DNA of 31,128 nucleotides. Source: Acidobacteriota bacterium (GTDB taxonomy: Bacteria; Acidobacteriota; Terriglobia; Terriglobales; Acidobacteriaceae). How positions within the stretch are numbered: position 1 is the stretch's first letter; each line of letters starts with the position of its first letter. Shown in pieces: positions 1 to 27,381 of the stretch. The position numbers were made by a program, and so were the translations under genes. The stretch spans positions 1 through 31,128 of the forward strand of contig JAFAPG010000045.1 of the NCBI GenBank assembly GCA_019247235.1, in the 5' to 3' direction. Under the pieces are notes generated by a model, which was not told where the DNA came from, ran no database searches, and worked only from the letters and a program-made list of their open reading frames with translations.

Positions 1-9
1 CTCGACCAT
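1..9 (-). CDS. 5' end of a leftward gene running off the window (MVE...)
   Basis: ATG at 9..7 with GAGAGG 8 nt upstream; divergent from 217..468. Confidence 0.35.
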
Positions 10-55
10 GGCAGCAGCCTCTCAAAAACGATGCTCACAACACCGTCCGGAGTAC

Positions 56-3759: not shown

Positions 3760-4071
3760 TTACTTCAGCGGGAAGCGTGAGAGGAACGCCTGCAGGAGCC
3801 AGCCAATGACCGACCCTTCAGCGGCGACGAGGAAGGTTAGAATTTTGATCCAGATTTTTGCCCAGCCTAATTTCTGAAGCGCCGACTTGCACTGCAACAC
3901 CTGAGTGCGCAGCTCGTCATTCGCGCGAACCAAAAGCCGGATGCGGTCATGAGCCGTGGTAACATCCTTTCGTAGTTCCTCAGGTGAGCGGTCCTCGAGA
4001 TAATGTTTTTTCCATTCATCGGGATGTTTCCATGACGAAGGGTCGGTAAAGAGAGGATCGCGAAAGGTCAC
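3760..4071 (-). CDS. Coiled-coil protein with C-terminal transmembrane helix (lysis-module membrane protein)
   Basis: Heptad region followed by IWIKILTFLVAAEGSVIGWLL; overlaps upstream stop. Confidence 0.7.
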   Translation of the reverse strand: MTFRDPLFTDPSSWKHPDEWKKHYLEDRSPEELRKDVTTAHDRIRLLVRANDELRTQVLQCKSALQKLGWAKIWIKILTFLVAAEGSVIGWLLQAFLSRFPLK

Positions 4072-4541
4072 TTCGTTTCTCCCGCGAACACCGCATGGTT
4101 GCAGTCAATCCAGTTGTGCGAGATACACCCTTGAGCATCCTCGAGCGACATCAGGCCGGCGCACACTCGGCGATGTAACTCGTTTTCAAGTTTGTCTTTA
4201 ACGTGAAAGCCAGGCGAGCCGTCTGAATATTTCGCAAGCTCGGGCCATAGGTTTTTGACGTCGTCCATTCCACCGAGCTCGAGGGGGATGAGATGGTCAA
4301 TTTCCTCTCGCACGGCCTTGGGGCATGGTTTCACTCCGTATGCCTTACACACTTGGCGCTTCATCGCCGCAGTTGTTTTGCGAAAGGGTTTCGTGCGAAA
4401 AGACGCAGAGCAAATCTCGTCCGCATTGGTAGTGCGAATCGCGCCTGGGGTCAAATCGGGATTAGGAAGCTGGGCCTGTAAGGGGGTTAAAGAGAAGCAA
4501 AAAGCCAGGCCCAGCCAACCTATGGCGTGCGATAACTGCAT
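4068..4541 (-). CDS. Secreted HNH-family nuclease-like protein
   Basis: Hydrophobic N-terminus ending LQA|Q; EIDHLIPLELGG..NLWPE..K..LEN..H HNH motif; 6 Cys in mature part. Confidence 0.75.
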   Translation of the reverse strand: MQLSHAIGWLGLAFCFSLTPLQAQLPNPDLTPGAIRTTNADEICSASFRTKPFRKTTAAMKRQVCKAYGVKPCPKAVREEIDHLIPLELGGMDDVKNLWPELAKYSDGSPGFHVKDKLENELHRRVCAGLMSLEDAQGCISHNWIDCNHAVFAGETK

Positions 4542-4623: not shown

Positions 4624-4953
4624 TTATGCGGCTGCGAAGTAGCCTTTTAGCGCTTGAACGGCCAGCTCAACCAAAAGATTGAGCAGTGATTCAGCGACTG
4701 TGATGCCCTGAGCTTTTAAGTCGGTTCCAATTTTCTGGACGGCCGCCACCCGTTTCCCCGCGCCGTCAGTTGCGAGAGTAGAAACTGCTTCGACTGCATC
4801 GGCCACGACTTTCCCTTCAGCGGTTTTTAGCAGTGCCAGCGCAGATTGGGCGAACTGCTGGGCGCGCTCCTTGCCAACGAGCTTCTCGAAGTCGGCGCTT
4901 ACTTTTACTTCCGCGCCATGCACAAAATTCTCAATCTTACTAAATAGACTCAT
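4624..4953 (-). CDS. LL-H holin-family-like or amphipathic lysis accessory protein
   Basis: GAGKRVAAVQKIGTDLKAQGITVAESLLNLLVELAV resembles the LL-H holin C-terminus; no clear N-terminal TM. Confidence 0.55.
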   Translation of the reverse strand: MSLFSKIENFVHGAEVKVSADFEKLVGKERAQQFAQSALALLKTAEGKVVADAVEAVSTLATDGAGKRVAAVQKIGTDLKAQGITVAESLLNLLVELAVQALKGYFAAA

Positions 4954-6338: not shown

Positions 6339-8327
6339 TTAGTGAGACACCCAGTTCGAGCCGTTGCAATAGACAGGGATTCTCACCGCGCCTCCACCTG
6401 CGACGGTCGCGTTGTAGGTGGGCGCATTGGCGTCAGTGACGATGCGAATTTGATCCTGAGCACCAGCGTTGCAAGTGGGAAGACTGGCGACGGTGCTAGC
6501 CGGACCTATCACGGGTGAGGACAGCGTTTTATTTGCAAGCGTGTCGGTTGTACTGGCGAAAACCAGGGTGTCAAAGGAGCCTGCGGCTGCATTGGTGCCC
6601 TGTGAACATTTCGCGCGATATGCCGTGCTGTCGTAGTAGCAGAGAAACAAATTGGTCGCTGGCCCGATATTGACGGAGCCCACAGCCATCGGAGTCATGC
6701 CCCAAGTGAAAAATTCCGGCGTATCCACCGGCCCCCAGGTCTCGCTATTGTAGGCGGAGCCCCCATTGTTGATCGCCGGGTTGTTGGCCGAACTGGGATA
6801 GCAAGCCAGTCGATTGCCTGCGGTAGCCATCGACGAATCCCCTTTGATGTGCCAGTTATAGCTTCCTCCCGATAGATCGATCAGCGCGTCGCAAATCGCA
6901 AAGCCGCTCTGATCCCAAGGGTTTATTGATCGCCAGCTGTTGTTATGTACGTCCACATCGGCGCAGTTGTTGCTAGTCGATTGGATCCCGTGTGCGTGAC
7001 CTCCTCCGTCGAACTGCACGCCGTTGATTTCCATTCCCAGTACTTTGTCACACACGAGAGCTTTATGCGTGTTGCAGGTAGTCGAGCTGTCACCGCAAAG
7101 CTGAAGCACCGAGTCATGGATGTGAATAGCCGCTCCGTTTCCTATGTGCCACGCCGTGAACGTTCCTCCCAAAGCTCCATAGGAAGCGCTGTAGCACTGA
7201 TCGCATTCAATGCCTGCCGGAGCAGGACCACTCGACGCCCCAATGTCATAAGCAGTGGTCGTAGCCGCGTAGCACTGGATATTTTTCATCACCACATTGA
7301 CAGCCGCGTTGCCGCCGCCTCCATTCACGAGGTTTATGCACTTCGGCATTGTCGAGGACGAGTTGAAATTGATCTGAACGCGCTCGATCTGAACGTCGTA
7401 GATACCTGAAACGGCGTTCTGTTGTTGTCGGATATAGGAGTCTGAATAGTTCGCGGTCGTCGGGCTGTAGTTAACGTCGCGGACTTTGATGTGCGCTCCA
7501 CGCAGCGCGATCGCGGAAACAGCCGTTCCAGAATTGGTAAACACGAGCTTCTCGACCGTGACCCAGTATCCAGTAACGAACTGATCGACCCCTGCGCAAG
7601 ACGTGCATTGAATCTGTGTAGCTTTTTCGCCAGCTCCTCGCCAGATGCAACCACCATTCTTACTGTCGATCTGCGCCGAATGTTGATAGGTGCCCGCGCC
7701 GAAAAGGATGGTGCCAAAGTTCTGAAATCCATCGCCGGCCGTCCCAGCACACACCGCATTGACCGCCATAGTGAGGCCGGTGTCGTTGCTTGCGGCCGAG
7801 TTCGAAGTAGATATGCCGAACCACTCCGCGTACGTATTCGCGATGGCAAGCGGCCCGAGCGTCAATTGTGTCCCAGTGCAATTTTGGAAATGCTGAGAAG
7901 CGTCGGCGACGATCGGCGCGTTTATGGTGAGCGTATTCCCGTTGCAATTTAGGATCGCCCCATTGTCCATCTGCAACGTGACCCCGGCGGGGATGGTAGT
8001 GTTCGCGGTCAGCGAATAGGACGACAATGAAGTAAAAGCGTGAATGTAACCGCTAGATGCGGCGCAGGCGACCGCAGAGGCAAAGGTGTTGTTTGAGTCG
8101 GCGGAGCAGGAGCCCCCTAATTGCTTCAAATTTAGGTTGCCGGAAAATTTCGCTTGCCCCTTCCCGCTCTGCGAGATACACGCATCGTTGCCATCGTCTT
8201 CCCCGACGCAAAACTTGTAAGGCGAGAGCACGCGAACATCAGACGACGACCGCCCACCAAAGTTCTGCGCGAAAAGCGGCAAAGAGCAAGAAGAAAAGAG
8301 AGCGAGAACAAAGACAATCTTTTTCAT
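6339..8327 (-). CDS. Beta-helix (pectate-lyase-like) tailspike/depolymerase with N-terminal signal peptide
   Basis: MKKIVFVLALFSSCSLPLFA|Q; TILFGAGTY..GCIWRGAG beta-helix entry; C-terminal TVASLP..VTDA..VAGGG..PVYCNGSNW fibre motif. Confidence 0.8.
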   Translation of the reverse strand: MKKIVFVLALFSSCSLPLFAQNFGGRSSSDVRVLSPYKFCVGEDDGNDACISQSGKGQAKFSGNLNLKQLGGSCSADSNNTFASAVACAASSGYIHAFTSLSSYSLTANTTIPAGVTLQMDNGAILNCNGNTLTINAPIVADASQHFQNCTGTQLTLGPLAIANTYAEWFGISTSNSAASNDTGLTMAVNAVCAGTAGDGFQNFGTILFGAGTYQHSAQIDSKNGGCIWRGAGEKATQIQCTSCAGVDQFVTGYWVTVEKLVFTNSGTAVSAIALRGAHIKVRDVNYSPTTANYSDSYIRQQQNAVSGIYDVQIERVQINFNSSSTMPKCINLVNGGGGNAAVNVVMKNIQCYAATTTAYDIGASSGPAPAGIECDQCYSASYGALGGTFTAWHIGNGAAIHIHDSVLQLCGDSSTTCNTHKALVCDKVLGMEINGVQFDGGGHAHGIQSTSNNCADVDVHNNSWRSINPWDQSGFAICDALIDLSGGSYNWHIKGDSSMATAGNRLACYPSSANNPAINNGGSAYNSETWGPVDTPEFFTWGMTPMAVGSVNIGPATNLFLCYYDSTAYRAKCSQGTNAAAGSFDTLVFASTTDTLANKTLSSPVIGPASTVASLPTCNAGAQDQIRIVTDANAPTYNATVAGGGAVRIPVYCNGSNWVSH

Positions 8328-8333
8328 GAGACC

Positions 8334-10553
8334 TTATCGAGTGACGCGGAAATTCAAAGTCGCTGCTGTGGGGGTGATGGAGTTCGCGGTCGGATTGCAG
8401 TACTGAAAGTTTACGTTGTTCGCGGTCGGCCAGACGCTGACCACTAGCTGCGCGGGATTCGCGGCCGGCGCGGCGTTGTAACTCCAGGTGATGGCGTCGG
8501 TCGTCGCTACCCCGGTTGCTCCTACCGTGACCGTCGTGCCGCAAGCTCCTGATGCAATCGCGGCCGTGGTCATCGTCGCCGTGCCTGCCGCAAGCGACTG
8601 GGTCATGTTAAAGTAAGTGCCGTTATTGATTGAGCACTTGAGAACGTGATTGGTGGAGTCGCCATAACACCAGTCTTGTCCGCTTACGCCCGCGCCGTTG
8701 TTCGGTGTTCCGGTTTCGTAAAACGTGAGGCTGGGAATTTTTGGCCCGATCGATTTGAAGCTATTGTCGACAAACTCCGCTCCTCCCCCGGTGACGGTGA
8801 AGCTGTTCAAGCCGACTTGAACGGCCGCTGCGGTCGCTCCTGAATCGATTTGTAAGCCGTTCGCGTTGGTGAGTGACACCGGACCATAGTTGCGGTCAAT
8901 CAAGACGCGAAAGCTAGCGGTCTGAACTCGAATGGCCGCAATCGCCGAGTTGGTTCCGCTAGACCCCAAGCGGATGAAGTTGCCCGCGATTTCCGCGTCT
9001 CCGATTCCGATGAACTGGACGCCCATGTCGGTGACATCGATAAAGTTGTCCCGAACGTACTGCTGCCCACTTCCCGAGGTCTCGACCCTGACGCCTGCCA
9101 CCTGGCCGAAGGAGATCAAATTGTTGGTGAGGTGTACGTCGCCCGAGTCGCGAAAGTAAACCCCGTACGAAGAGCCGTTGGTCTGATTGAAGTCGTCGAT
9201 CGCGTTATGATCGATCCAGCTGTCGGCGCAGCCCCAGCAATAGATCCCCGCGGGCGCCGTTCCCGCCGAATCGTTTCTAAAACTGGTTTGCGCGGCAATG
9301 AGGTTGTTGTAATGAATGAAGAAGCCGCCGACCCCGCCACCAGCCGATGCCGGAGAACTCAGGCTGCCGTTATCCACCGCGACTGAGTGCGAAGTGGCGT
9401 TCTTGATTTCCAAGTGATCGAGGTAGGTGGTATTCACCTTCCCCATGTGAATGTCATAGACGGCTGAAGATTGGTTTTGGGCGTTCCCGTCGATCGAGAG
9501 GAAGGCAACCCGGGTCCAGTAGATAGTTCCGGCCGTCTGCCCGGTTTCGGCCGCATTGACCCCGATCAGGACGACAGAATGGTTGAGCGAGTTCGCGGCC
9601 TTTAGCGTCGTCTTTTCTGGCCCGGCTCCGATTAGCTCCATTCCCGAGACAAACTGAATCGGGGTCGAAACCGTGTAAGCGCCCTGAGCCAGCAGAATGG
9701 TGCAGCCCCCGGGCGCGGCCACTGGGCCGACACCAGGAGTGACTTGCGGCCCGGTGTAACTCGGGCAAGTCGCACTTGCCGAATTGATCCAGGCTCCTGG
9801 GTCCGAGCCTCCCCAGCCGGCAGAATTTGCGGTATCGACGCAGCGTATCTTTTGAAACTGGTTACAGGTGGCGGTCCCGGTCAGCGTCACCGTGCTCGAA
9901 AAGGTGTTCGCGCCGGAAAAGGTGTTATTGCCGGAATAGGTTCCCGCGCCCGAGGCATTGATCGCCGATGCATTCACGTTCCAGCGATTGCCGGTTGAGC
10001 CAAGCGAAAGCGTACCGCTGCCTGTGGGAGTAACGTTTGCCTGGAAGGGTTGGTTGGCGCCGTCGAGCCGGGCATAAGTAGTATCCCCGGTTGGCGAGCT
10101 GACGACTGGGTTAGTGGTGATCGGAGCCACCTGGGAGATATCTAGCGTGGTGCCTGATTTCGCATGGACGGGCACCTCCGGTCCGGCTTTGCCGTTGAAC
10201 CAGGCTTGCATGCCGTACCAGACGGCCGTAGTCGAACCCCCGCAATTGATATCCCCGCCGAGCAGGCCGGTTGAATCGCGGGTTGAGTAAAGCGTCCCTG
10301 AGACGGCGCCGGATGAGTTCGCGGCAAGGTCGAAATAGAACACTCCCCCCTGAGAAGGCGCGATGAGCGAGGTTCCAGAGACGCGCGGCTGGTTCCCTCC
10401 GCAGCCTCGGAGCCAAAAGCGCATGAAGGCGTTCGGCGTGGTTGCCCCTGTCCCCAGGTTTTGCATGGTGCCGGTAACCGTGGTCGTGGCCTGGACGATG
10501 GCCGGCACAAAGAGCAAGGCGAGAAGTCGAATGAGTCGTTTCATCATCATCAT
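8334..10553 (-). CDS. Beta-helix tailspike with signal peptide and tail-fibre-N-like domain (start is one of four tandem ATGs)
   Basis: MKRLIRLLALLFVPAIVQA|T; TILLAQGAY..MELIGAG beta-helix entry; N-terminal TVTGTMQN..FMRFWL resembles lambda Stf N-terminal domain. Confidence 0.8.
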   Translation of the reverse strand: MMMMKRLIRLLALLFVPAIVQATTTVTGTMQNLGTGATTPNAFMRFWLRGCGGNQPRVSGTSLIAPSQGGVFYFDLAANSSGAVSGTLYSTRDSTGLLGGDINCGGSTTAVWYGMQAWFNGKAGPEVPVHAKSGTTLDISQVAPITTNPVVSSPTGDTTYARLDGANQPFQANVTPTGSGTLSLGSTGNRWNVNASAINASGAGTYSGNNTFSGANTFSSTVTLTGTATCNQFQKIRCVDTANSAGWGGSDPGAWINSASATCPSYTGPQVTPGVGPVAAPGGCTILLAQGAYTVSTPIQFVSGMELIGAGPEKTTLKAANSLNHSVVLIGVNAAETGQTAGTIYWTRVAFLSIDGNAQNQSSAVYDIHMGKVNTTYLDHLEIKNATSHSVAVDNGSLSSPASAGGGVGGFFIHYNNLIAAQTSFRNDSAGTAPAGIYCWGCADSWIDHNAIDDFNQTNGSSYGVYFRDSGDVHLTNNLISFGQVAGVRVETSGSGQQYVRDNFIDVTDMGVQFIGIGDAEIAGNFIRLGSSGTNSAIAAIRVQTASFRVLIDRNYGPVSLTNANGLQIDSGATAAAVQVGLNSFTVTGGGAEFVDNSFKSIGPKIPSLTFYETGTPNNGAGVSGQDWCYGDSTNHVLKCSINNGTYFNMTQSLAAGTATMTTAAIASGACGTTVTVGATGVATTDAITWSYNAAPAANPAQLVVSVWPTANNVNFQYCNPTANSITPTAATLNFRVTR

Positions 10554-10801
10554 TGGCCGTACATCCGTCGATAGAAGTTCTGCAGGTTCCCCATGGCTGG
10601 CGAGCGCTGGCTGAAAGGGTTCTGGCCCGCCTGGGGCGTAGGATTCTGCTGCTGCATCTGGCCTGAATCCTGAAAGTTGGGCGGCAAGAGCGGCGTCTGC
10701 GGGTTGACCGCCTGAGGCTGAACCGCGTTCACCGAGTTGGCCGCGTCCGATGAGCCATAGGGCGCGGAAGGCAGCATGTACTTGGGCGGAACCTGTCCCA
10801 T
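10550..10801 (-). CDS. Small Q/P-rich putative ejection/internal virion protein (MGQV...)
   Basis: TAAGGA SD; low complexity; stop overlaps tailspike start. Confidence 0.7.
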   Translation of the reverse strand: MGQVPPKYMLPSAPYGSSDAANSVNAVQPQAVNPQTPLLPPNFQDSGQMQQQNPTPQAGQNPFSQRSPAMGNLQNFYRRMYGQ

Positions 10802-14900: not shown

Positions 14901-15347
14901 TTAAATCTTGACGCTCAGCCGGTCCGCAGGCTGCGCTCCCACTGCACGGAGCGATTCTTTCCATTTTGCGCAGCGCTGTTCCGGGCGCTCTTTTGAGCTG
15001 ATGTGAATAAAGGCTTCATGCCCACGCGCGCCTTGATCCTGAAAAAATCCCCTCATGCGGTCGGTCAGCATCTTCGTGGCTCGTACCGCGTGATCTCCCG
15101 AGACGCGAAACACCGGAAGATCGATCCGCATGACGTAGCCGGTAATCCCCAGGATCTCCTTGTAGGAGCCGTCGGCATCAAGTGATACCGCCACCCAAAC
15201 TTTGGCGAAGCGCGCGAGGTTCAAATCTTTGCCGCCTTCAAGTTCACGCGCGCAGTAGTCAACCGCGAGGTCGTGGAGCTTTTTGTCGACTGGCTCTAAG
15301 AGCGCGCCCTGGCCTTGAAAGTCGAGCGGATAAACTGCGATTCGCAT
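14901..15347 (-). CDS. GNAT-fold-like protein (position of T7 gp13-type acyltransferase-like genes)
   Basis: alpha-beta pattern KVWVAV...ILGITGY...; TGATG coupling to the Hint gene; position before ejection genes. Confidence 0.55.
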   Translation of the reverse strand: MRIAVYPLDFQGQGALLEPVDKKLHDLAVDYCARELEGGKDLNLARFAKVWVAVSLDADGSYKEILGITGYVMRIDLPVFRVSGDHAVRATKMLTDRMRGFFQDQGARGHEAFIHISSKERPEQRCAKWKESLRAVGAQPADRLSVKI

Positions 15348-16198
15348 CAGTTGCCGTAGGGCTTCAAGTTGTGCGCGAAGCGCCCATTCACCAGGCGGTA
15401 GCAGTGGTCATCGTCGAGCTTTGAAGGTGTATCGAGCTCGAGGTTATAGACCTTGCCCGAAAATTCGACGCGGGGATAGCGTTCGGTGTTCTTCAAAACC
15501 TCCGCCGCCGGCTTCCAATAGCCATAACCGGCAAACATCAGATGCTCAGGCGTAACCAGCTCGCCTTTCCCCATGTCGATCATCTCGCCAGAAAAGTCGT
15601 GCACTTCGACAAACGCTACACGCTTCCACCCAAGCCGCGAGCAGACGCGATCGCCAATTACCAGTTCCTCGATCGGCTTTAGGCGATGCAGGGTAAAAAC
15701 CCGCGTGTTGCCGGAGAAGCAGGCTCCTCCGTAGCGGCTGACTGAAGTTGCCGAAGGCGCGTAGTCGGTCGTATAGGTTGGAGGGGTTACGGGCATCGCC
15801 GGCGCGCCAGTCTCGGCCGTCGCCGAGCCTTGAATCATCACCTTTTGCGATTCGCGGCCAATCTTTGAAACCGAAGAAATGAAAAAGTTCGTGGTTGGTG
15901 GCGTCGTGCCGGCCGTGCAATCGACGAAGTGCTGAGTTGCCAGGGGATCGCGAATCTCAGCGAACAGCGAAGTTTCAGAATCCTTGTACACCCGGTAGCC
16001 GGCGAGGTCGGTAGCATAAAACGGAGGCCGCCAATTAAGCAGCACGCCCCGCGGCGCGGCGGTTGCAATGACGTCGCGCGGTGGATCGGGTTTACGGTCG
16101 GTTCCTCGGGTGATAGTTGTGTCCTGCGCGTCCCGGCGCGCCTGAATACGTTCGTTCGGGGTCATGTTGATCCCGTAGTTACGCCGAATGATCTTCAC
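15347..16198 (-). CDS. FN3-like domain + Pro/Thr linker + C-terminal Hint (intein-like) domain
   Basis: PDPPRDV...VLLNWRPP...LAGYRVY...FFISSVSKIGRES (FN3); GGA|CFSGNT, VTPEH, VYNL...NGRFAHN (Hint). Confidence 0.85.
   Translation of the reverse strand: MKIIRRNYGINMTPNERIQARRDAQDTTITRGTDRKPDPPRDVIATAAPRGVLLNWRPPFYATDLAGYRVYKDSETSLFAEIRDPLATQHFVDCTAGTTPPTTNFFISSVSKIGRESQKVMIQGSATAETGAPAMPVTPPTYTTDYAPSATSVSRYGGACFSGNTRVFTLHRLKPIEELVIGDRVCSRLGWKRVAFVEVHDFSGEMIDMGKGELVTPEHLMFAGYGYWKPAAEVLKNTERYPRVEFSGKVYNLELDTPSKLDDDHCYRLVNGRFAHNLKPYGN
15368..15721 (-). other. Hint/BIL-type autoprocessing domain (Cys160..Asn277), no homing endonuclease
   Basis: Block A Cys-Phe, block B TxxH, terminal His-Asn followed by Leu. 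Confidence 0.85.
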
Positions 16199-16204
16199 CG
16201 CGGC

Positions 16205-18787
16205 TTATCTTTCGCGCTCGTCGCCAATCGCAGGAATCAGTTCGTACAGTCGCCCGTAGGTCTCAAGCGGCACGTGCGGAGGAGAGTTCAGTGCGAGATT
16301 TCCATCCGCCGAGTGCGAGCTCAGCTGAAAGCGCAAATACACGTGCTGAATTTCTGGCGCCGAAAGGTAAGCACGATAAAGCGAATCATTCTCGGCTCCC
16401 TGGACGGCTTGCGCCGGGTTGTCAGACGGGGTGAGGGCTTCAAATGCAAACTGCGCGCCCGCGGCCAGGGAGGTTGAAAGCGTCTTGCCCACGGAGACGT
16501 TAATCAGCGAGTCGCCGTACCAGTCGATGAACGGCACGCTTGGGCGATCCGTTCCTCCGTTTACGAGCAAGATCAAATCCGCGGCGTACTGATTTCCGAT
16601 GTCATCCGCTCCGGAATAGAGCTGATAGAGCTGGCCGTTGGTTGAGCCGGCATAAATCTGGAGCGCCCCAGTCGCGTCTCTCACTTGGGCGACGGTGAAA
16701 GCGTTTGAAAGCTGGCCAACGTACTGCTCGGCGTAGCCTTGGCCATAGACCGAGCCTGGCGCCTGCATATACTCGCGCAGCTTGAAGTCGTGTTTTACGG
16801 TGTAAGGCACGCCCCCGGATTGGCCTTCAATGCGCAGCTCGTCTTTCCCTTGCTGGGCGTTACGGTAGTAGACGAGCTCTACCTGGGAGAGATACGTCGA
16901 ATCGATTTTGAAGAGCTCCGCGGCTTCATATTCGTCTGAGACCACAACCGGCACGCCGTTCTGAAGCGTAACCAGCTGCTTGTCGCCTGAGAGCCAAAAG
17001 AATCCGTGCGAGCCGCATTTCGTGCCCGCGCGCCGCCCCGCTATTCCCACGTTGAAGGGGCCAACCCATTGCTGAATGCCGGCCAGGTTGACCGAGAGCG
17101 CGCAATCGTGGAGCGTGCCCATCAAAATCTCTTGATCAATCTCAAAGATGGCGGTTGCTGCTTCGCCCGTGGGAAAAGTATCGATATCGTTTGCCGCCCA
17201 GCTCTGTTCTGGGCGGCCGGTAACGACTCCCGAACGGTCGTCGGCGAGAGACCCCGAGCGGCGAAGCGTAGGAGATCCGGTGTCGGCGGCGTAACAGTAG
17301 TCTCCTGCCACGGCGAACATATTCGACTGCGCCGGGATGATGCCATTCCTGGTAGGGAGTTCGTGGTTGCCATCGGTGATTGCCTGATAGCCAATCAAGG
17401 ATGTTGAGCCGTTCTGCCCGTACAGCCAATTGCCAGCATTGTCGGTGGCGACATAGGGCACGAGGACTCCGTCGCCGGTTCGCCCAACCAGAAACGACCA
17501 TTCCGTATCGGTCCCTGAGTAGTCGGGCAGGCCTTGAATATGAAAGTTGCAGCGGTTAGGCTGCGCGGCAAAAGACTTCCCTGGAAGATAGCGCCCGCCG
17601 ATCGCGATCCTGTTGCCTGCATGGCCCCCGCCGTTTGGGTTATAGATCGCGCCATAAAACTGGTATCCGGGATTTGAACCGCCCACGGTTGATTGCGCGA
17701 GCCCTCGGTTCTCGTTGGCGATAGGCGTAGGGCCGACTAGGTTCTGAGTCGCCAGCACATCGACCGAGGTGGCGGCGTTCGCGGCCGTCACCGCTTGCGA
17801 GATCGAGCCTCCGCTAGAGGCGACGCTGGGGCCGTAATTCGTATAGGCAAGCGTGGCCGAGTTGGGCACGCTGGCGACCTTATAGACGCCATTGAAACTG
17901 TCATCGGCTACGAGATTCACGACGATGATGTCGCCGACGGAGCGTCCATGTGCGCTCTGGGTACCGATGGTGACCACATTAGCCGCGCGCGAGACGGAGG
18001 CGTTCTGGACGAGCGTTCCTGGCTGGTAAACGAAATAGCCAACGTTCCCGCCGTCGTAAGTCGTGGCAATAACCTTGATCCAATTGGCGTTGACGCCTGA
18101 AAGATTCGGGAGAGTTGCGACGGTTACTTTTTGGTTCAGCGCGACGTTTACCCGCGCGCCTGATCCGGCGACGATGGTCGCTGGCCCGCGTTCGTTGTTT
18201 GAGCTATCAAAAATGGCGACGTAAAAGAGCAAGCCGATTGAAGTTGCCGCCGATTGCCCGCCCCCTGCAGGCGTGAAAGTGATCGAAGTGTTTTCGGCTG
18301 TGGTTAGCTCTCTGACGCCATCGACGATGGTGACGTTTTGCACTTCGGCTGAGGTTGGAGCCCGCAATCCGTTGGTGCGCCAGGTCGTGCCGTCAAACCA
18401 TTTCTGGTCGGTTCCGTTTCCGTAATGGAAGCGATTGTTGGCGAAATAGCCTGCGCCTTTTGCCGAGCTGCCGACCGCCGCGCCTCGCACCGTGGGAGTG
18501 GTGACCACTCCGGTTCCGGTGTTTAAAACCTGGAGCGTCGTGCCGCTCATGAACAGTACGTACTTCGTTCCGTCCCAGGTGCGATAAGGAAACATCGAAT
18601 GAATGGCCGACGATGCGGTTGAATTCATCGTGACCGTCGAATAGCCCCAGCGCAGCTCCCAGAACCCCGCTTGCTTCGGTACCCAGTTCAAGCACCGAAG
18701 TGCCCGATTTCTGGGCATATTGATCGGGTTTGAGCGCGAATCTACGCCGCCCGCGTCAATTTGCTCAAACGGTTGGAGGCGAGCCAT
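16205..18787 (-). CDS. Tail nozzle/stabilization protein (T7 gp12/P22 gp10-like position)
   Basis: 860 aa beta-rich; N-terminus GGVDSRSNP..MP..ALRCLNW..ELRWGY typical of podoviral tubular protein B; follows adaptor. Confidence 0.75.
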   Translation of the reverse strand: MARLQPFEQIDAGGVDSRSNPINMPRNRALRCLNWVPKQAGFWELRWGYSTVTMNSTASSAIHSMFPYRTWDGTKYVLFMSGTTLQVLNTGTGVVTTPTVRGAAVGSSAKGAGYFANNRFHYGNGTDQKWFDGTTWRTNGLRAPTSAEVQNVTIVDGVRELTTAENTSITFTPAGGGQSAATSIGLLFYVAIFDSSNNERGPATIVAGSGARVNVALNQKVTVATLPNLSGVNANWIKVIATTYDGGNVGYFVYQPGTLVQNASVSRAANVVTIGTQSAHGRSVGDIIVVNLVADDSFNGVYKVASVPNSATLAYTNYGPSVASSGGSISQAVTAANAATSVDVLATQNLVGPTPIANENRGLAQSTVGGSNPGYQFYGAIYNPNGGGHAGNRIAIGGRYLPGKSFAAQPNRCNFHIQGLPDYSGTDTEWSFLVGRTGDGVLVPYVATDNAGNWLYGQNGSTSLIGYQAITDGNHELPTRNGIIPAQSNMFAVAGDYCYAADTGSPTLRRSGSLADDRSGVVTGRPEQSWAANDIDTFPTGEAATAIFEIDQEILMGTLHDCALSVNLAGIQQWVGPFNVGIAGRRAGTKCGSHGFFWLSGDKQLVTLQNGVPVVVSDEYEAAELFKIDSTYLSQVELVYYRNAQQGKDELRIEGQSGGVPYTVKHDFKLREYMQAPGSVYGQGYAEQYVGQLSNAFTVAQVRDATGALQIYAGSTNGQLYQLYSGADDIGNQYAADLILLVNGGTDRPSVPFIDWYGDSLINVSVGKTLSTSLAAGAQFAFEALTPSDNPAQAVQGAENDSLYRAYLSAPEIQHVYLRFQLSSHSADGNLALNSPPHVPLETYGRLYELIPAIGDERER

Positions 18788-18789
18788 AG

Positions 18790-19509
18790 CTAGGTCGAGC
18801 GGACCGCGTCTTCAGACATGGCGAGCTGGAGTTTATAGTTTGGGTCGAACTGGCGCTTGGCCATGAGATCGAGGATTCCCTGCTCGTACTCTTCCTTCGC
18901 GTCTTCTGTTTTCTGGTTGGTCGAGCCGTATGCCCACTTGAAAATCTTCCATACCAGCCCCGAGACGATGGTGTTGTGCCCCCAGGCGGGAATGAGCGGC
19001 ACAGCGTCGTTTGTCGAGTCGGTCGCCGGGTTCGGGATCGCCCAGCCCACTACATAAGCCGTATACGCCGCGTCTGGCGGATCCATGCGAATAACGTTGA
19101 TCCCGCTTGGGTCAAGCGTGTAGCGCCCGCCTGGCGCGTTCACGTTTCCCTGCGTAGGCGAGGTAATGGTCGTGTTCTGGATCATCTCGAGCAGAGTCTC
19201 GGGATCGTACATCGGGAGCATTTCGGCCGTCTGAAAGGGATTGGTTGGGATGATGAGCGAAAACTTGGTGATTTCCTCGAGCAGGATCTCGGTCATCGCT
19301 CCGGCTGGCGTGGTCACGACCGAGGTTAGATCATACGTCGGCTGGGCCACGACCGTCTGAAAGCTAAAGACCAGGCGCCGCCACCAAAACCGCTGGCGCT
19401 TACAGATGTCCTGCAAGACCAGGCGGTAGAGGTTGGGCAGGGATAGAACCTTTTCGCCCTTGCGCTCAGAGAGCTGGTTGGCCAGCTCGAGGATTTCGGT
19501 TCGAGTCAT
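18790..19509 (-). CDS. Head-tail adaptor (T7 gp11/P22 gp4-like)
   Basis: MTRTEILELANQL N-terminal helix; PLIPAWGHNTIVSGLVWK..AYG C-terminal motif; position. Confidence 0.7.
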   Translation of the reverse strand: MTRTEILELANQLSERKGEKVLSLPNLYRLVLQDICKRQRFWWRRLVFSFQTVVAQPTYDLTSVVTTPAGAMTEILLEEITKFSLIIPTNPFQTAEMLPMYDPETLLEMIQNTTITSPTQGNVNAPGGRYTLDPSGINVIRMDPPDAAYTAYVVGWAIPNPATDSTNDAVPLIPAWGHNTIVSGLVWKIFKWAYGSTNQKTEDAKEEYEQGILDLMAKRQFDPNYKLQLAMSEDAVRST

Positions 19510-19514
19510 GGGAA

Positions 19515-19598
19515 TTAGTTCAGGGAATCAAGAAAACAGATGAGCCAGACGGCAGAAATCATGCCCAGAAGAAACCAGCAGAGATCGCGAACTTTCAT
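19515..19598 (-). CDS. 27-aa single-TM micropeptide MKVRDLCWFLLGMISAVWLICFLDSLN (not in ORF track)
   Basis: ATG overlaps dehydrogenase stop (ATGA); fills the gap; stop 5 nt before adaptor ATG. Confidence 0.6.
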   Translation of the reverse strand: MKVRDLCWFLLGMISAVWLICFLDSLN

Positions 19599-20887
19599 AC
19601 CGCGCGCGGATCGAGCAGGGCGGCAGATTGCAATGCGCGGTCTTTCGAACTGAGCACGCCGCGCCTCTCGCCTTCCCCGATGCGAATTACTTCAACCCCG
19701 GGAACGTCCGGCATGTAGCGAAAGGGGTCAATGACGATCGAGCCCGGCGCGAACTGATACCGGGTGTAACGCTCGTGCTGGCAGCCGATAAAAACCAGAT
19801 GCGGGGCTTTCGTCACGTCCTTGTCTTCGGTGCACGAGTGGGCCACTCCGCGCCGTTTCAGGATGAAGGAGAGAAGCCTCGCCGGCGATCCGGTGTCGAT
19901 GTTGGTTTCTGGCTTGAACGCCCGCCCCAGGATTACGACCGGAAGCTGGTGCACCTGCCAGCGGTACTCTTCGACGAGGTCTGCCAGGAATTCGCAGTGC
20001 TTTTCGCGGGCCACCATCAGCGACTCGAAGAAGTCGTACGAGAGATTCACATTGCGGGCCAGCCAGGAGAGCGCGATATTGTCGCGCGGGTGGCATCCGC
20101 CTCCGTCGCCCATGCCGGCCTTCAGGTACTTGGTCGAGATAAGGCGTCTGGTCGAAAGCTCGAGCGCCCGGTAGATGTCGTCCACTTTCATGCCGCAGCG
20201 GTGCGCCATCTCGCCGTAAAGATTCGCGAGCACAGTTTTTGCCGTGATGAAGGTGTTGTACAGCACCTTGATGCCTTCGGCGGTGCGGATGTCGGTCTTG
20301 AGCGCCGGCGCGCCATAGCAAATTGTTTCGTAAAAGTGAGCGAGCAGCGTGGCCGCTGCTGGCGAGCGAGCGCCGATCAGCCAAAATTCGGGATTAAGGA
20401 AGTCGTTGTAGACCGTCCCCATGGCGATGAACTGGGGCGAATAGACCAAGTCGAATTTCGCTCCGATGATCGGCAGCACCTCGCGCTCGATCGTCCCCGG
20501 AAGTACCGTCGAGATGACGACGCAGGGCGTCCGTTGAATCAGGTAGCGATTCACTTCTCGGACGCACTCAACCAGATAGTCGTAATTAAAATCCGCGCGC
20601 GTGTCAGGGAGAGGCGTAGCGCCTTCGTAGGCGTCGATGTGCGGTGTCTGGGGTGCCAGGAAAAGAATGTCGGCCCACTGGCAGAGCTCTTCGAGCGAGA
20701 CCATCTCCATCTGCGTCTTTCGGAGCAGCTCTTCGGAATGTGCTTCCTTGAACGGGATCTCGCGCTTCAGTAGATACTGTTTAGGCGCGGCGGAAATGTC
20801 ATAGCCTCGAACCCAGTGGCCGCGCGACTCGATCGAGAGAGCGACCATCAGGCCCAGCTTGCCGCAGCCAACCATGCCCACGTTCAT
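19595..20887 (-). CDS. ugd: UDP-glucose/GDP-mannose dehydrogenase family protein
   Basis: GCGKLG Rossmann motif; PQFIAMG (PEF-like); EGIKVLYNTF; GDGGGCHPRD with catalytic Cys; GRAFKPET. Confidence 0.9.
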   Translation of the reverse strand: MNVGMVGCGKLGLMVALSIESRGHWVRGYDISAAPKQYLLKREIPFKEAHSEELLRKTQMEMVSLEELCQWADILFLAPQTPHIDAYEGATPLPDTRADFNYDYLVECVREVNRYLIQRTPCVVISTVLPGTIEREVLPIIGAKFDLVYSPQFIAMGTVYNDFLNPEFWLIGARSPAAATLLAHFYETICYGAPALKTDIRTAEGIKVLYNTFITAKTVLANLYGEMAHRCGMKVDDIYRALELSTRRLISTKYLKAGMGDGGGCHPRDNIALSWLARNVNLSYDFFESLMVAREKHCEFLADLVEEYRWQVHQLPVVILGRAFKPETNIDTGSPARLLSFILKRRGVAHSCTEDKDVTKAPHLVFIGCQHERYTRYQFAPGSIVIDPFRYMPDVPGVEVIRIGEGERRGVLSSKDRALQSAALLDPRAV

Positions 20888-22542
20888 GCGAGGACCAGCT
20901 CCGGCTTCTGCTCGAAGGCGACGCCGAGCCTCGCCTTCAACTTGCGAATATCTTCAGCCCGCGCGGGTGCAAGGTTTTGGTAGAGCTCGTCCACGTTGTC
21001 CGCTTTATGCCGCTCCAGGCGCTCTTTGTGGGTTTTGTCCCACTCGGCCTTTCCTGTAAGCGGGTGCATGTGCTCGGTGACAAAGGGCAGCGGCACGCGC
21101 CGGCCGATCGCGCTTGCGACTTCGTTCAGCCAGGTATCGTTGTAGTCACTAGAAAAGTAAGGTGGACAGAAATATCCGACCGTCTCGATCCAGGCGCGAT
21201 GCAAAAAGCCATGCGTGCCAAACTGGTCGCCGTACACTCCGTCATCGCCGTGCACGAATACTAGGCGGTCCGGGAAGGCGGCAAAGGCGCGCCGTACGTA
21301 GTCGTCCCAGCCCTTGGTCTTGAAGACGATGTCGTCGCCCGCGTGCATCAGAATTTCGCCAGTTGATACTTCGGCGCAGCGGTTCCACATCTTCGAAAGC
21401 GTGATGCGCGGCCCAAGGACGTTCTTAATCTCTACGCCTTTCCAGAATTCTGGGCCGGGCGTGCAGTCGTCTAAGTCTCGGTAGAGGACAATCTCAGGCA
21501 TTACCGTAGAGGTCTCTAGTAATGAGTCGATCAGCCGTTTGATATTCTCCGGCCTTCCCCTGGTCGGGCAGAGGATTGAAATCTTCATCTCCGGCACGTC
21601 CATCGGATACTGCCCGTGCACCTTGGCTTTCAGGATCGATTGCTCGCGATAAGGCTCAAAATCTCGAATCGAGTAAGAGTAGTGGCCGATGTGTCCAGGC
21701 TGGATTGAGGTGTCGCAGTAGCTCGAGATCCCGGCGTAGCGCTTGGCGACCATGCAGAACCCGACGTCTTCTCCGTACTCGATCGAAGATTTGAATGCTG
21801 GCAGAAATCGGAACCAGTAGCAGAGCTTCTGCTCGTCGAAGGCTTTGAGGCGCGCCGTCTTGATCTCTTCCGCGCGTTCGCTCGAGATCCCATAAAACTC
21901 TTTCTCCCACAGGCAATCAAAGTACGATTGAGCGACTTGCTCGAGCGCGTGCTGAGTGATCAGCATCAGGCCTGTGCCGACGCCTCCAACCTCGAGGAGT
22001 TGCCCTTCCGGCCATTCCCAGATTTGCCCAAAGTCGCCGGTCTCTTCGTTGAAGTGGCGAATGTTTGGAATTGGCGGGTCGGTCCTCCGGGTACAGAGTC
22101 CGGCCACGATGTCCTTTTTATGGGAAAGCAATTTCTCGAGGTGGTCTTCTTCGACCACGATGTCATCGTCGACAAAGAGAATGTGCGTCCAGGGCTTCCC
22201 GCTCTTTAGCTGTTCGGTAATCAGGCCGTTCCGTGACCAGTGCACAACCGAGGCTGAAAGCGGCGCGCCTGCGTAAACCGTGGCGATATCTTTCTCCCGG
22301 GTGTAACGCACCATGCGGCCAAGCGCGTCTTGCATCTGCGGCTCAGGGGCGCGGTACGTGGGGCAGAGAATGCATACGATGGGCTTCTGCTCGGCAGGGT
22401 TCTGTTTCTGGTCCTCGGGCGCCTCAACCGAGATGCCGTAATCTTTGAGTGCGGCGCGGCCGTTCGCCGAGAGCAAGAGCAGTTTCGCGCGCTTACGCCA
22501 TTTCTCCGCCTTCTGCGCTTCGAGTTTGTCTTTGAGGCTCAT
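20884..22542 (-). CDS. Glycosyltransferase with two tandem GT-A (GT2-like) domains
   Basis: Domain 1 ILCPTY..SRN..LFVDDD..GTGLMLI..GEDVGFC..GHIG; domain 2 ILCPTRGRP..WN..GDD..DYNDTW..EHMH. Confidence 0.88.
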   Translation of the reverse strand: MSLKDKLEAQKAEKWRKRAKLLLLSANGRAALKDYGISVEAPEDQKQNPAEQKPIVCILCPTYRAPEPQMQDALGRMVRYTREKDIATVYAGAPLSASVVHWSRNGLITEQLKSGKPWTHILFVDDDIVVEEDHLEKLLSHKKDIVAGLCTRRTDPPIPNIRHFNEETGDFGQIWEWPEGQLLEVGGVGTGLMLITQHALEQVAQSYFDCLWEKEFYGISSERAEEIKTARLKAFDEQKLCYWFRFLPAFKSSIEYGEDVGFCMVAKRYAGISSYCDTSIQPGHIGHYSYSIRDFEPYREQSILKAKVHGQYPMDVPEMKISILCPTRGRPENIKRLIDSLLETSTVMPEIVLYRDLDDCTPGPEFWKGVEIKNVLGPRITLSKMWNRCAEVSTGEILMHAGDDIVFKTKGWDDYVRRAFAAFPDRLVFVHGDDGVYGDQFGTHGFLHRAWIETVGYFCPPYFSSDYNDTWLNEVASAIGRRVPLPFVTEHMHPLTGKAEWDKTHKERLERHKADNVDELYQNLAPARAEDIRKLKARLGVAFEQKPELVLA

Positions 22543-26370: not shown

Positions 26371-27381
26371 TTACTGCACTTGCTCTACTGTTGCGGAAGC
26401 TTTTGCAGAAAATGAAGTGCCGCTAAAAGTTAGTTTGACGACGATGGCGGTCTGGCTGGTGTCGATGTCCACGAGCGCCGTGCCGTAATAATTGCCGGCG
26501 GCGCTAGTGGTGAACGTGAGAGCAGGGGCTGCAGTTCCGCTCTGCACGAGCGACAAGTTTGCCGGCGCTTGCGCGTTGCCATTCGAATCTTTCCAGGTCG
26601 CCGTCCATCCCAGAGTCGCGGTATTAGCAGCCGAAACCGACAGCACGAAGTGGATTCGATAGGTACCAGTCGAGGCATATGGGGGCGTGAATGTTAGAAC
26701 GTTAGAATCGGCTGCACTCTCCGACTTTTGTGAGGTGGCACCGTAGATCCCAACGACGCCTAAGCCAGCCGTCGTGACTCCGTTGTACTTGGTAAGCAAA
26801 TTCACTTGAAGGTTCGAATTGGTGTTGCCGGGAGCAGTTCCGATGCTGAGTGTATTCGAGGTTGCGTAAGAGAGATAAACACTGGGCGTGAGCCCATCGG
26901 TGTTGGCGCTGCTTACAAAGCCGTATCCGCCCGCGCCGCTCATAACCGTTGAACCGTTGTTCGCGAGGATTGCTAGGTGTTCGTGAGACCCATCCATGAC
27001 GCCGATGCGATCGGTCGCCGACCGCGAAAAGCCTAAGCCGGGTTGGTTCGCAAAACTGTAGCTCGGCGCGGTGAGCGAGCCATCTGGTAGCAAGATGGGT
27101 AGAGCCGCGGTAAGCGTCGCGCCGTTGTTGGTCCATCCACTGCCCGCTGCATTCCCGAGCTGAATGTTTGCCCAGTTCGAACCGTTCGACGGGCAGCTAT
27201 AAAGGACGTGGTTCGTCGTGTCGAGATACTGCTGCCCGCCGTTTACGCATGGATTCGAAGGTGCACCGGAGCCCGTGATCTGCGGTGATACCTGGGCAAA
27301 GACGTAGCCGATACAGAGAAGGCAGGCGACGAGCGAAAGCCCGATCGTGAGAGGGAGCCACTTGCGGCGAATCTTGGTCAT
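26371..27381 (-). CDS. Fibre/decoration-like beta protein with signal peptide (start refined to MTKIRR, 336 aa)
   Basis: MTKIRRKWLPLTIGLSLVACLLCIGYVFA|Q; GSLTAPSYSF and YLDTTNHVLYSC fibre motifs; Ser/Thr-rich beta C-terminus. Confidence 0.75.
   Translation of the reverse strand: MTKIRRKWLPLTIGLSLVACLLCIGYVFAQVSPQITGSGAPSNPCVNGGQQYLDTTNHVLYSCPSNGSNWANIQLGNAAGSGWTNNGATLTAALPILLPDGSLTAPSYSFANQPGLGFSRSATDRIGVMDGSHEHLAILANNGSTVMSGAGGYGFVSSANTDGLTPSVYLSYATSNTLSIGTAPGNTNSNLQVNLLTKYNGVTTAGLGVVGIYGATSQKSESAADSNVLTFTPPYASTGTYRIHFVLSVSAANTATLGWTATWKDSNGNAQAPANLSLVQSGTAAPALTFTTSAAGNYYGTALVDIDTSQTAIVVKLTFSGTSFSAKASATVEQVQ

Follow-up and report, generated by a model that had tools for sequence, protein, structure and literature searches.

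Sec-type leaders and paired cysteines point to exported tailspikes in an SU10-like phage binned with an acidobacterial genome

In the textbook account, tailed phages are assembled entirely within the reducing cytoplasm. In podophage tailspikes and in dual receptor-binding systems (P22 gp9/Sf6 type; Klebsiella phage KP32 gp37/gp38; phi297 gp61; LKA1 gp49), a conserved anchor is joined to an exchangeable beta-helix or distal part; to our knowledge these spikes lack a signal peptide and are built in the cytoplasm. Here we analysed a 31,128-nucleotide stretch of DNA from an Acidobacteriota bacterium (assembly GCA_019247235.1, contig JAFAPG010000045.1, positions 1 to 31,128 of the forward strand; the whole stretch is called the window below) that encodes two spikes of this design. 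As in the dual systems, two consecutive genes at the end of the structural module encode a 739-residue primary tailspike (P0002) and a 662-residue second receptor-binding protein (P0001), which has a short N-terminal module of its own that is probably an adapter to a partner protein. Unlike spikes of the P22/KP32 type, both proteins carry a leader, and their cysteines appear to behave as disulfide pairs.

A receptor-binding protein with a general secretory (Sec) signal peptide and disulfides is familiar from filamentous phages, whose g3p folds in the periplasm; inoviruses, however, assemble at and extrude through the envelope, whereas tailed phages fill their heads in the cytoplasm and exit by lysis. 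Among phage lysis proteins, signal peptides are known on the fOg44 endolysin Lys44, on signal-arrest-release (SAR) endolysins and on the T4 antiholin RI (PMC6116005). Like the spikes proposed here, these are late proteins that use host Sec and wait in the envelope until the holin fires; unlike them, they are not parts of the virion, and none must join a particle afterwards. Signal peptidase I signals have also been described on capsid, spanin and unknown genes of Porphyromonas gingivalis phages, some of them exposing an N-terminal glutamine, in a study that mentions neither fibres nor tailspikes and does not test export by comparison (Matrishin et al. 2023, PMC10367356). The same glutamine start is predicted here for the 662-residue protein and for two other leader-bearing open reading frames (ORFs). 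Conversely, the absence of a signal peptide has been used to support a phage origin of fibre-like proteins (PMC6199706). Our literature search found no published account of the assembly route considered below, nor of a signal peptide on the receptor-binding protein of a tailed phage.

The primary spike begins with MMMMKRLIRLLALLFVPAIVQA, which holds four methionine codons and is followed by TTTVTG, and the second spike begins with MKKIVFVLALFSSCSLPLFA, followed by QNFGG. In both ORFs a basic n-region precedes an uncharged hydrophobic h-region, and a sequence-only reading of this DNA had assigned Sec-type signal peptides to both. Homologues from related phages bear this out. Among 120 homologues of the primary spike, 102 have a hydrophobic leader (83 a short one and 19 one behind a longer N-terminal extension), 14 are leaderless and 4 are truncated. 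All 83 short leaders obey the -3/-1 rule, with alanine (71), glycine (10) or serine (2) at -1 and alanine (53), valine (14), leucine (9), serine (5) or cysteine (2) at -3; position +1 is threonine in 81, and -2 is frequently phenylalanine or tryptophan. Their modal length is 18 residues. Two lysines or arginines lie within the first 8 residues in 72, aspartate and glutamate are absent from 80, and proline or glycine occupies -4 to -7 in 50. Pairwise identity of the h-regions is 0.26, compared with 0.18 expected from composition, and rises to 0.61 in the next 15 residues. Because a constraint on character rather than on sequence is typical of signal peptides, the leader behaves as one. Homologues from IMG/VR at 28-37% identity still bear leaders.

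To judge the leaders against a background, we applied a strict home-made signal-peptide rule, having dropped an earlier, relaxed one that fired on 43% of control ORFs. The strict rule fired on 75 of the 120 family members, as against 10.9% of the long ORFs of the metagenome-assembled genome (MAG) to which the window belongs. This excess, and the recurrence of the leader in 102 of 120 homologues, indicate that the leaders are more than chance. We also considered a twin-arginine translocation (Tat) signal and rejected it: the n-regions mostly contain K-R, K-K or R-K, and the few leaders with RR do not have the rest of the motif (S/T-R-R-x-F-L-K). Both leaders of the window look to be of the canonical Sec/signal peptidase I type, and they are probably real export signals.

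The leaderless orthologues provide an internal comparison. All 14 start with M-[STAP]-T-T-[IV]-x-G, one residue ahead of the predicted mature N terminus of the leader-bearing proteins. At the DNA level, checked for two of the genes, the GTG start of L001 has a Shine-Dalgarno sequence of its own ahead of it (GGAGG), and the ATG of L007 lies directly against a stop codon. The L001 relative has the same synteny as the window, small upstream ORF included, and the leaderless spike is its sole spike. In a tree built without the columns of the two cysteines discussed below (C51 and C104), the leaderless forms were not one clade: supported branches force at least two changes, the best tree needs eight, and two leaderless forms nest in a clade with 96% support whose 81 proteins are otherwise leader-bearing. 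Because this tree has only 148 columns, the number of independent losses or gains of the leader is soft.

These orthologues also bear on the idea that the start codons were called too far upstream and that the true proteins begin past the hydrophobic stretch. The 739-residue ORF offers some room for this, with four candidate ATGs and no strong Shine-Dalgarno sequence. However, the leader-bearing genes have neither a methionine nor a conserved alternative start at +1, the next methionine (M30) is not conserved, and genuinely leaderless genes have a start of their own at +1. The n/h/c architecture is moreover kept in about 100 diverged genes, which would be unexpected of a read-through 5' region. 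We therefore regard miscalled starts as scarcely credible. The first ATG of the 739-residue ORF overlaps the stop codon of an upstream 83-residue ORF (ATGA). The junction, caATGATGATGATGAaa (10541-10556, minus strand), holds four in-frame ATGs of the spike, and its upstream frame reads four consecutive TGA stops; this repeated start/stop overlap is unusual.

Cysteine content tracks the leader. The sequence-only reading had counted 12 and 24 cysteines in the mature spikes, mostly as neighbouring pairs, against one in the 403-residue capsid protein, and our recount agrees: P0002 has 12, none of them in the leader, and P0001 has 25, one of them in the leader. Elsewhere in the window, the portal, scaffold and ejection-type proteins have 0-2 cysteines and the nozzle-like protein 5. 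The spacing in P0002 is that of neighbouring pairs (51/104, 230/238, 263/284, 439/442, 629/640 and 671/719). Across the family, the N-terminal domain has two conserved cysteine columns, C51 and C104, and both residues are present in 101 of 102 leader-bearing proteins but in none of the 14 leaderless ones.

If all cysteines are in disulfides, their number must be even, and parity can therefore be read as a test. Mature cysteine counts were even in 82 of 102 leader-bearing proteins (binomial p 4e-10) and in 2 of 14 leaderless ones, so that an earlier remark on even counts in the two window proteins extends across many unrelated distal modules. With the distal parts collapsed to 79 clusters (>=40% identity), counts were even in 68 of 79 (p 3.5e-11), and for the distal parts alone in 61 of 79 (p 1.3e-6). 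The parity background, taken from the long ORFs of the MAG, was 55% even without a leader and 68% with one. The cysteine content of the leader-bearing spikes thus supports folding in an oxidising compartment, as far as counts and spacing can indicate. In the leaderless spikes (P0084-P0118), 12 of 14 counts are odd, which puts the even share under the chance level of about 50%. Relatedness, or a single cysteine left over after loss of a pair, may explain these odd counts.

A different role for the hydrophobic N terminus would be that of an uncleaved membrane tether or assembly element, which would keep the spike on the cytoplasmic face, or fixed in the inner membrane, up to the moment of docking. 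The argument for it comes from the small Pro/Gln-rich ORF that always lies ahead of the spike gene, that of the leaderless spike in L001 included. In at least 13 relatives this ORF is fused in frame before the leader (for example P0004, P0023, P0036, P0040, P0041, P0043, P0045, P0057, P0061, P0065, P0070 and P0107; L008-L010), which puts the leader about 75-100 residues inside a longer ORF and gives a product in which a cytoplasmic-looking head is followed by an internal signal-anchor and then by the spike. Because at least five of these fused forms have no internal methionine, the segment would be an internal signal-anchor in them, although it may be cleaved. Yet the -3/-1 rule holds in the fused forms as well as in all of the short leaders, leaderless orthologues manage without the segment, and the segment drifts almost freely, unlike a structural contact. 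A cytoplasmic spike would also leave unexplained why the cysteine pair and even parity track the leader. We consider a tether improbable.

Taken with the leaders, the cysteines make export and oxidative folding of the spikes highly probable, and for a purely computational case we regard the evidence as strong.

We next consider what the exported protein might attach to. The homologues of P0002 share its N-terminal 20-30% (coverage 18-49%) at about 60-70% identity (37-77%) and differ beyond it, which fits the anchor and exchangeable-body design of tailspikes: pairwise identity of the N-domain is about 0.65, and the distal parts form 79 unrelated clusters. The gene also lies at the end of the virion module, beside the lysis genes. 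The sequence-only reading had placed a Stf-N-like attachment domain right after the cleavage site, and at the level of fold this was confirmed. The predicted N-domain is a six-stranded antiparallel beta-sandwich at the N terminus of a fibre-type protein. In an exhaustive structural search, the best match to residues 22-147 was Ur-lambda gpStf 1-94 (Z 9.4, root-mean-square deviation 2.5 A), the superposition covering 92 of the 94 residues of 9e7m chain Ta; further matches were the cyanophage A-1(L) neck fibre (8.8), the Bxb1 tail tip (8.5) and the XM1 neck (8.4). In each case the matched part is the first ~94-110 residues of a virion-attached fibre, so the docking-type fold of P0002 starts where the leader ends. 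Residues 1-94 of gpStf (gpStfN; PDB 9E7M) are the docking domain on the lambda tail tip, to which they attach in twelve copies (PMC12617516). Unlike P0002, gpStf starts at residue 1, has neither a leader nor the cysteine pair, and belongs to a siphovirus. At the sequence level, a profile of the N-domain found no PDB chain at E <=10, and 35 N-domains compared with Pfam at E <=1 gave only six unrelated single-member matches. Because the fold is common and no sequence-level link was found, we read the likeness to Stf as resemblance and not as proof of homology or membership.

The rest of P0002 is that of a tailspike. A right-handed beta-helix body is supported by Pfam matches, although the AlphaFold model of this middle part is unreliable (predicted local distance difference test (pLDDT) <50). 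The C-terminal beta-sandwich matches the C termini of tailspikes and depolymerases, namely KP32gp38 (Z 8.0), phi297 gp61, LKA1 gp49, AP22 gp54 and Pam1, with Z 7-8 for the KP32gp38, phi297 gp61 and LKA1 gp49 matches.

For the second spike, a word-based homologue search with the whole of P0001 or with its residues 1-100 found nothing, and an exhaustive phmmer search resolved the protein into three separately shared modules. The N-module aligned with P0124, P0143, P0150 and a 1889-residue protein of L002. In L005 and L002 a P0001-type gene directly follows a P0002-type gene, P0124 being the L005 case. The leaders of P0001 and its four N-module homologues all end in alanine, glycine or serine before a glutamine (5/5). 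This speaks against an earlier suggestion that P0001 could be a lipoprotein, cut by signal peptidase II before Cys14 and acting as a membrane-anchored depolymerase. Residues 11-14, F-S-S-C, do loosely resemble a lipobox, but position -3 is phenylalanine, not leucine, valine or isoleucine, and the consensus [LVI][ASTVI][GAS]C is absent. As none of the four homologous leaders (P0124, P0143, P0150 and the L002 protein) has this cysteine, and all four keep the module starting at glutamine, we consider a lipid anchor very unlikely.

The C-terminal two-cysteine module of P0001 explains most of the best 150 of 2002 cluster representatives (E <=0.001). The strict leader rule was passed by 51 of the 79 long proteins that hold this module, again compared with 10.9% of MAG ORFs, and 46 of these 51 have even cysteine counts. 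Beta_helix, Pect-lyase_RHGA_epim or Phage_T7_tail domains occur in relatives of the P0001 modules; P0001 itself gave no Pfam match, and its model, from a 7-row alignment, has a pLDDT of 35. Two leader-bearing holders of the C-terminal module (L023:9001-11553 and L024:9001-11802) stand in two fibre-position settings: at the final position of a podovirus-type module, and just after Baseplate_J/wedge genes of a myovirus-type cluster. The only cultured case that we found is a 1001-residue leader-bearing protein of Burkholderia phage Bm1 (PP183292 CDS_0099; L004:3160-6165), which is surrounded by small genes without assigned function. Separately, P0182 (L022:620-2368) has a T7-type tail-fibre N-domain (PF03906, residues 36-116) behind a well-formed leader (MKLKR... 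ending AQA before T), which suggests that canonical T7-like fibre anchors can also carry leaders; its start codon is putative and its contig short.

Exported spikes would meet virus particles only when the cell lyses. In our preferred reading, to which we give a probability of roughly 0.5, the spikes reach their mature form in the periplasm and attach to cytoplasmic particles when the holin triggers lysis. Both receptor-binding proteins would be made as precursors with cleavable Sec-type signal peptides and cross the inner membrane unfolded; signal peptidase I would cut after VQA in the 739-residue protein and after LFA in the 662-residue one, and in the periplasm the spikes would then fold, their disulfide bonds joining mostly consecutive cysteines. 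Meanwhile the leaderless heads, adaptor and nozzle would assemble in the cytoplasm. The capsid, adaptor, nozzle-like and ejection-type proteins are all leaderless and poor in cysteine, and the adaptor with the nozzle-like protein (16205..19509) is likely to be the docking platform there. Once the holin opens the inner membrane, the pools of spikes and particles could mix; a lambda-type holin makes very large membrane lesions. The primary spike would then dock through its Stf-N-like domain, and the second would attach through its own conserved N-module.

The leaders and their conservation, the leaderless orthologues, the covariation and parity of the cysteines, the modelled N-domain fold and the synteny come out of the analysis itself, and this proposal builds on them. 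We infer the time and place of docking from three further points: the N-domain is about equally conserved in the aligned leaderless and leader-bearing orthologues, no other fibre gene was found, and a leaderless endolysin is encoded together with holin-like genes. The endolysin gene directly follows the gene of the 662-residue spike, and its product has neither a leader nor a SAR segment.

The main rival, and a serious one, is that the spikes leave the cytoplasm yet never become part of the particle. They would then be free or envelope-associated polysaccharide depolymerases, clearing slime or destroying receptors on the lysing cell and its debris, and the virion would adsorb through another, unrecognised protein. 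The leaders and the cysteine signature fit this equally well. There is also a bacterial example in WceF of Pantoea stewartii, an exported trimeric beta-helix depolymerase with a phage-type, P22-like head-binding domain at its N terminus (PMC7949094), although WceF is encoded by a chromosomal exopolysaccharide-cluster gene, relies on a Tat signal instead of a Sec one and has no particle to dock on. The leader-bearing protein of Bm1 lies outside an obvious structural block, and a leader-bearing homologue in one genome of the host's class (G286) lies beside a gene that does not look phage-like. Against a free enzyme, the N-domain is about 65% identical across phages with unrelated distal parts, the leaderless ones included. 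This conservation despite unrelated distal parts points to one conserved partner of the N-domain; for the leaderless phages the particle is the sole candidate. The same conservation favours docking over a free depolymerase. The genes moreover stand at the classic fibre position, between ejection-type and lysis genes, and neither the window nor the single-spike relative L001 yielded a further fibre candidate; an earlier statement that the window has no other obvious fibre gene also holds at the corresponding position in relatives. On balance, we judge a freely secreted depolymerase to be the less likely of the two readings.

Several points weigh against docking at lysis, or against export itself. 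We infer translocation, cleavage and disulfide formation alike from the sequences. For tailed phages, the literature that could be searched describes no earlier case of docking after lysis. The modelled N-domain fold is a common transthyretin-like sandwich, for which Z of 8-9 lies in the range of generic matches. The covariation of leader and cysteine pair has exceptions, in that P0098 bears a leader without the pair and the distant leader-bearing L016 and L019 do not have C51; the short tree (148 columns) leaves the count of independent events soft, and a sign test on supported branches has only two pairs. The beta-helix identity of P0001 is suggested by relatives of its modules, not by P0001 itself. 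Finally, the host is assigned only from binning and from the name of a single homologue.

The window is one entire contig of an acidobacterial (Terriglobia-like) MAG with 958 contigs. It carries the late genes of a short-tailed, SU10-like phage that was binned with this MAG, and these genes run in the order large terminase fragment, portal-position ORF of 769 residues, SU10-type capsid protein, sugar-nucleotide dehydrogenase, glycosyltransferase, SU10-type adaptor, 860-residue nozzle-like protein, cysteine-free low-complexity ejection-type proteins, 83-residue ORF, spike 1 (739 residues), spike 2 (662 residues), leaderless lysozyme and holin-like genes (Table 1). Membership among SU10-like podophages follows from the matches of the capsid protein and the adaptor to PF17236 and PF24175; the 769-residue ORF had no family hit. 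The gene order is kept in L005 (the closest relative), in L002/L003 and in L001, with the adaptor followed by the nozzle-like gene in L001 and L002. As in L001, L002 and L005, the spikes form the final structural block ahead of the lysis genes; in L005 a GTA_holin_3TM gene comes after the lysozyme gene.

Table 1. Coordinates of the spike genes, their parts and neighbouring features in the window (a slash marks a predicted cleavage site)
Feature	Position	Strand	Remarks
Holin-like gene, lysis module	4624..4953	-	PF09682 Holin_LLH E 2.7e-05; PHROG holin families
Endolysin (phage lysozyme)	5912..6334	-	PF00959 E 3.5e-13, phrog_7; N terminus MAPSNLIDQ
P0001 gene, 662 residues, second receptor-binding protein	6339..8327	-	Mosaic; 24 mature Cys
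P0001 C-terminal two-Cys module, ~55 residues	6342..6515	-	LPTCNAG ... VTDA.APTYN ... GGGA ... C.G..W..H
P0001 N-module, ~residues 21-75	8103..8267	-	Q-x-F/W-x-G-R/Q-S-S ... PYKFCVG.D.G.D.C; conserved
P0001 leader, residues 1-20	8268..8327	-	Predicted site LFA/Q
P0002 gene, 739 residues	8334..10553	-	Leader, docking-type N-domain, beta-helix, C-terminal beta-sandwich
P0002 C-terminal beta-sandwich, residues 650-739	8337..8606	-	Cys 671/719; pLDDT ~90
P0002 right-handed beta-helix, residues 279-527	8973..9719	-	PF12708 E 1.8e-07, PF13229 E 3.8e-06
P0002 N-terminal beta-sandwich, residues 23-150	10104..10487	-	Candidate virion-docking domain; pLDDT >90; pair C51/C104
P0002 leader, residues 1-22	10488..10553	-	Predicted signal peptidase I site VQA/TTT; modelled helix residues 4-20
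83-residue Pro/Gln-rich ORF, MGQVPPKY...	10550..10801	-	Just upstream of P0002 start, ATGA overlap
860-residue nozzle-like protein	16205-18787	-	No leader
Adaptor	18790-19509	-	PF24175 SU10_adaptor E 1e-08; no leader
Major capsid protein, SU10 type, 403 residues	23909..25120	-	PF17236 E 6.7e-29; 1 Cys, no leader

Other genes of the window have features of their own. Between the capsid and adaptor genes (19595-22542, minus strand) lie a UDP-glucose/GDP-mannose dehydrogenase-family gene and a glycosyltransferase-like gene, and similar sugar-nucleotide genes occupy this position in L001 and L002. After the nozzle-like gene, a 283-residue protein (15347-16198, minus strand) has an Ig-like stretch and then weak Hint/Vint matches (E 6e-05 and 1e-03) that fall under the Pfam cut-offs. 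Leader-like N termini are also present on a 336-residue ORF between the portal-position ORF and the scaffold genes (26371-27381, minus strand; ...CIGYVFA, then QVSPQ) and on a 157-residue ORF with 7 cysteines at the end of the lysis block (4068-4541, minus strand; ending in A before Q); neither of these two ORFs has a Pfam or PHROG match.

The first 25 nucleotides of the window (1-25, the left end of the contig) are shared with the end of C69, a 5.4-kb contig of the same MAG whose genes look like phage early genes (a YqaJ-like, exonuclease-looking ORF and a 512-residue ATPase-like ORF), and from this overlap and these genes we conclude that the phage genome continues there. The composition of the contig is near that of the MAG, and one homologue is named from Candidatus Angelobacter, of the Terriglobia; the assignment to a host rests on binning and this one name. 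A common prophage is unlikely, because among 300 genomes of the host's class just one other, G286, has a homologue. Its gene (L021:1438-3318) encodes a leader-bearing protein of 626 residues and has a cupin-like gene as neighbour on its large contig; this gene could be a remnant or have been domesticated. A tblastn search with the N-domain found no match in 50,697 phage records, and so the Tunturi phages of acidobacteria are not closely related; the paper on these phages reports neither signal peptides nor virion proteomics. A DSBA-family match in the MAG carries little weight: some members of this family are cytoplasmic enzymes, and only binning makes the MAG the host.

The leader-bearing relatives of both spikes raise a wider idea, which we offer tentatively and with some doubt: a large, mostly uncultured set of tailed phages, of podovirus and myovirus types and extending beyond the Acidobacteriota, might build its virions in two compartments. 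Heads and tail cores would then be cytoplasmic and disulfide-bonded receptor-binding proteins periplasmic, and infectious particles would be completed around holin-triggered lysis. The leaderless orthologues form a natural control pair for experiments on this question. If receptor-binding proteins are exported as a rule, the last step of assembly would take place at or after lysis, and the depolymerase would already sit in the envelope ahead of release. To fold, the spikes would need the Sec system, signal peptidase and disulfide oxidation of the host, which would add new host factors and routes to resistance, and producing such depolymerases in a heterologous host would call for the periplasm or for oxidising conditions. 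Annotation pipelines that count a signal peptide against a virion or phage origin, as was done for fibre-like proteins (PMC6199706), would misfile such genes. For phages of acid soils, disulfide-locked spikes may explain the stability of the particles.

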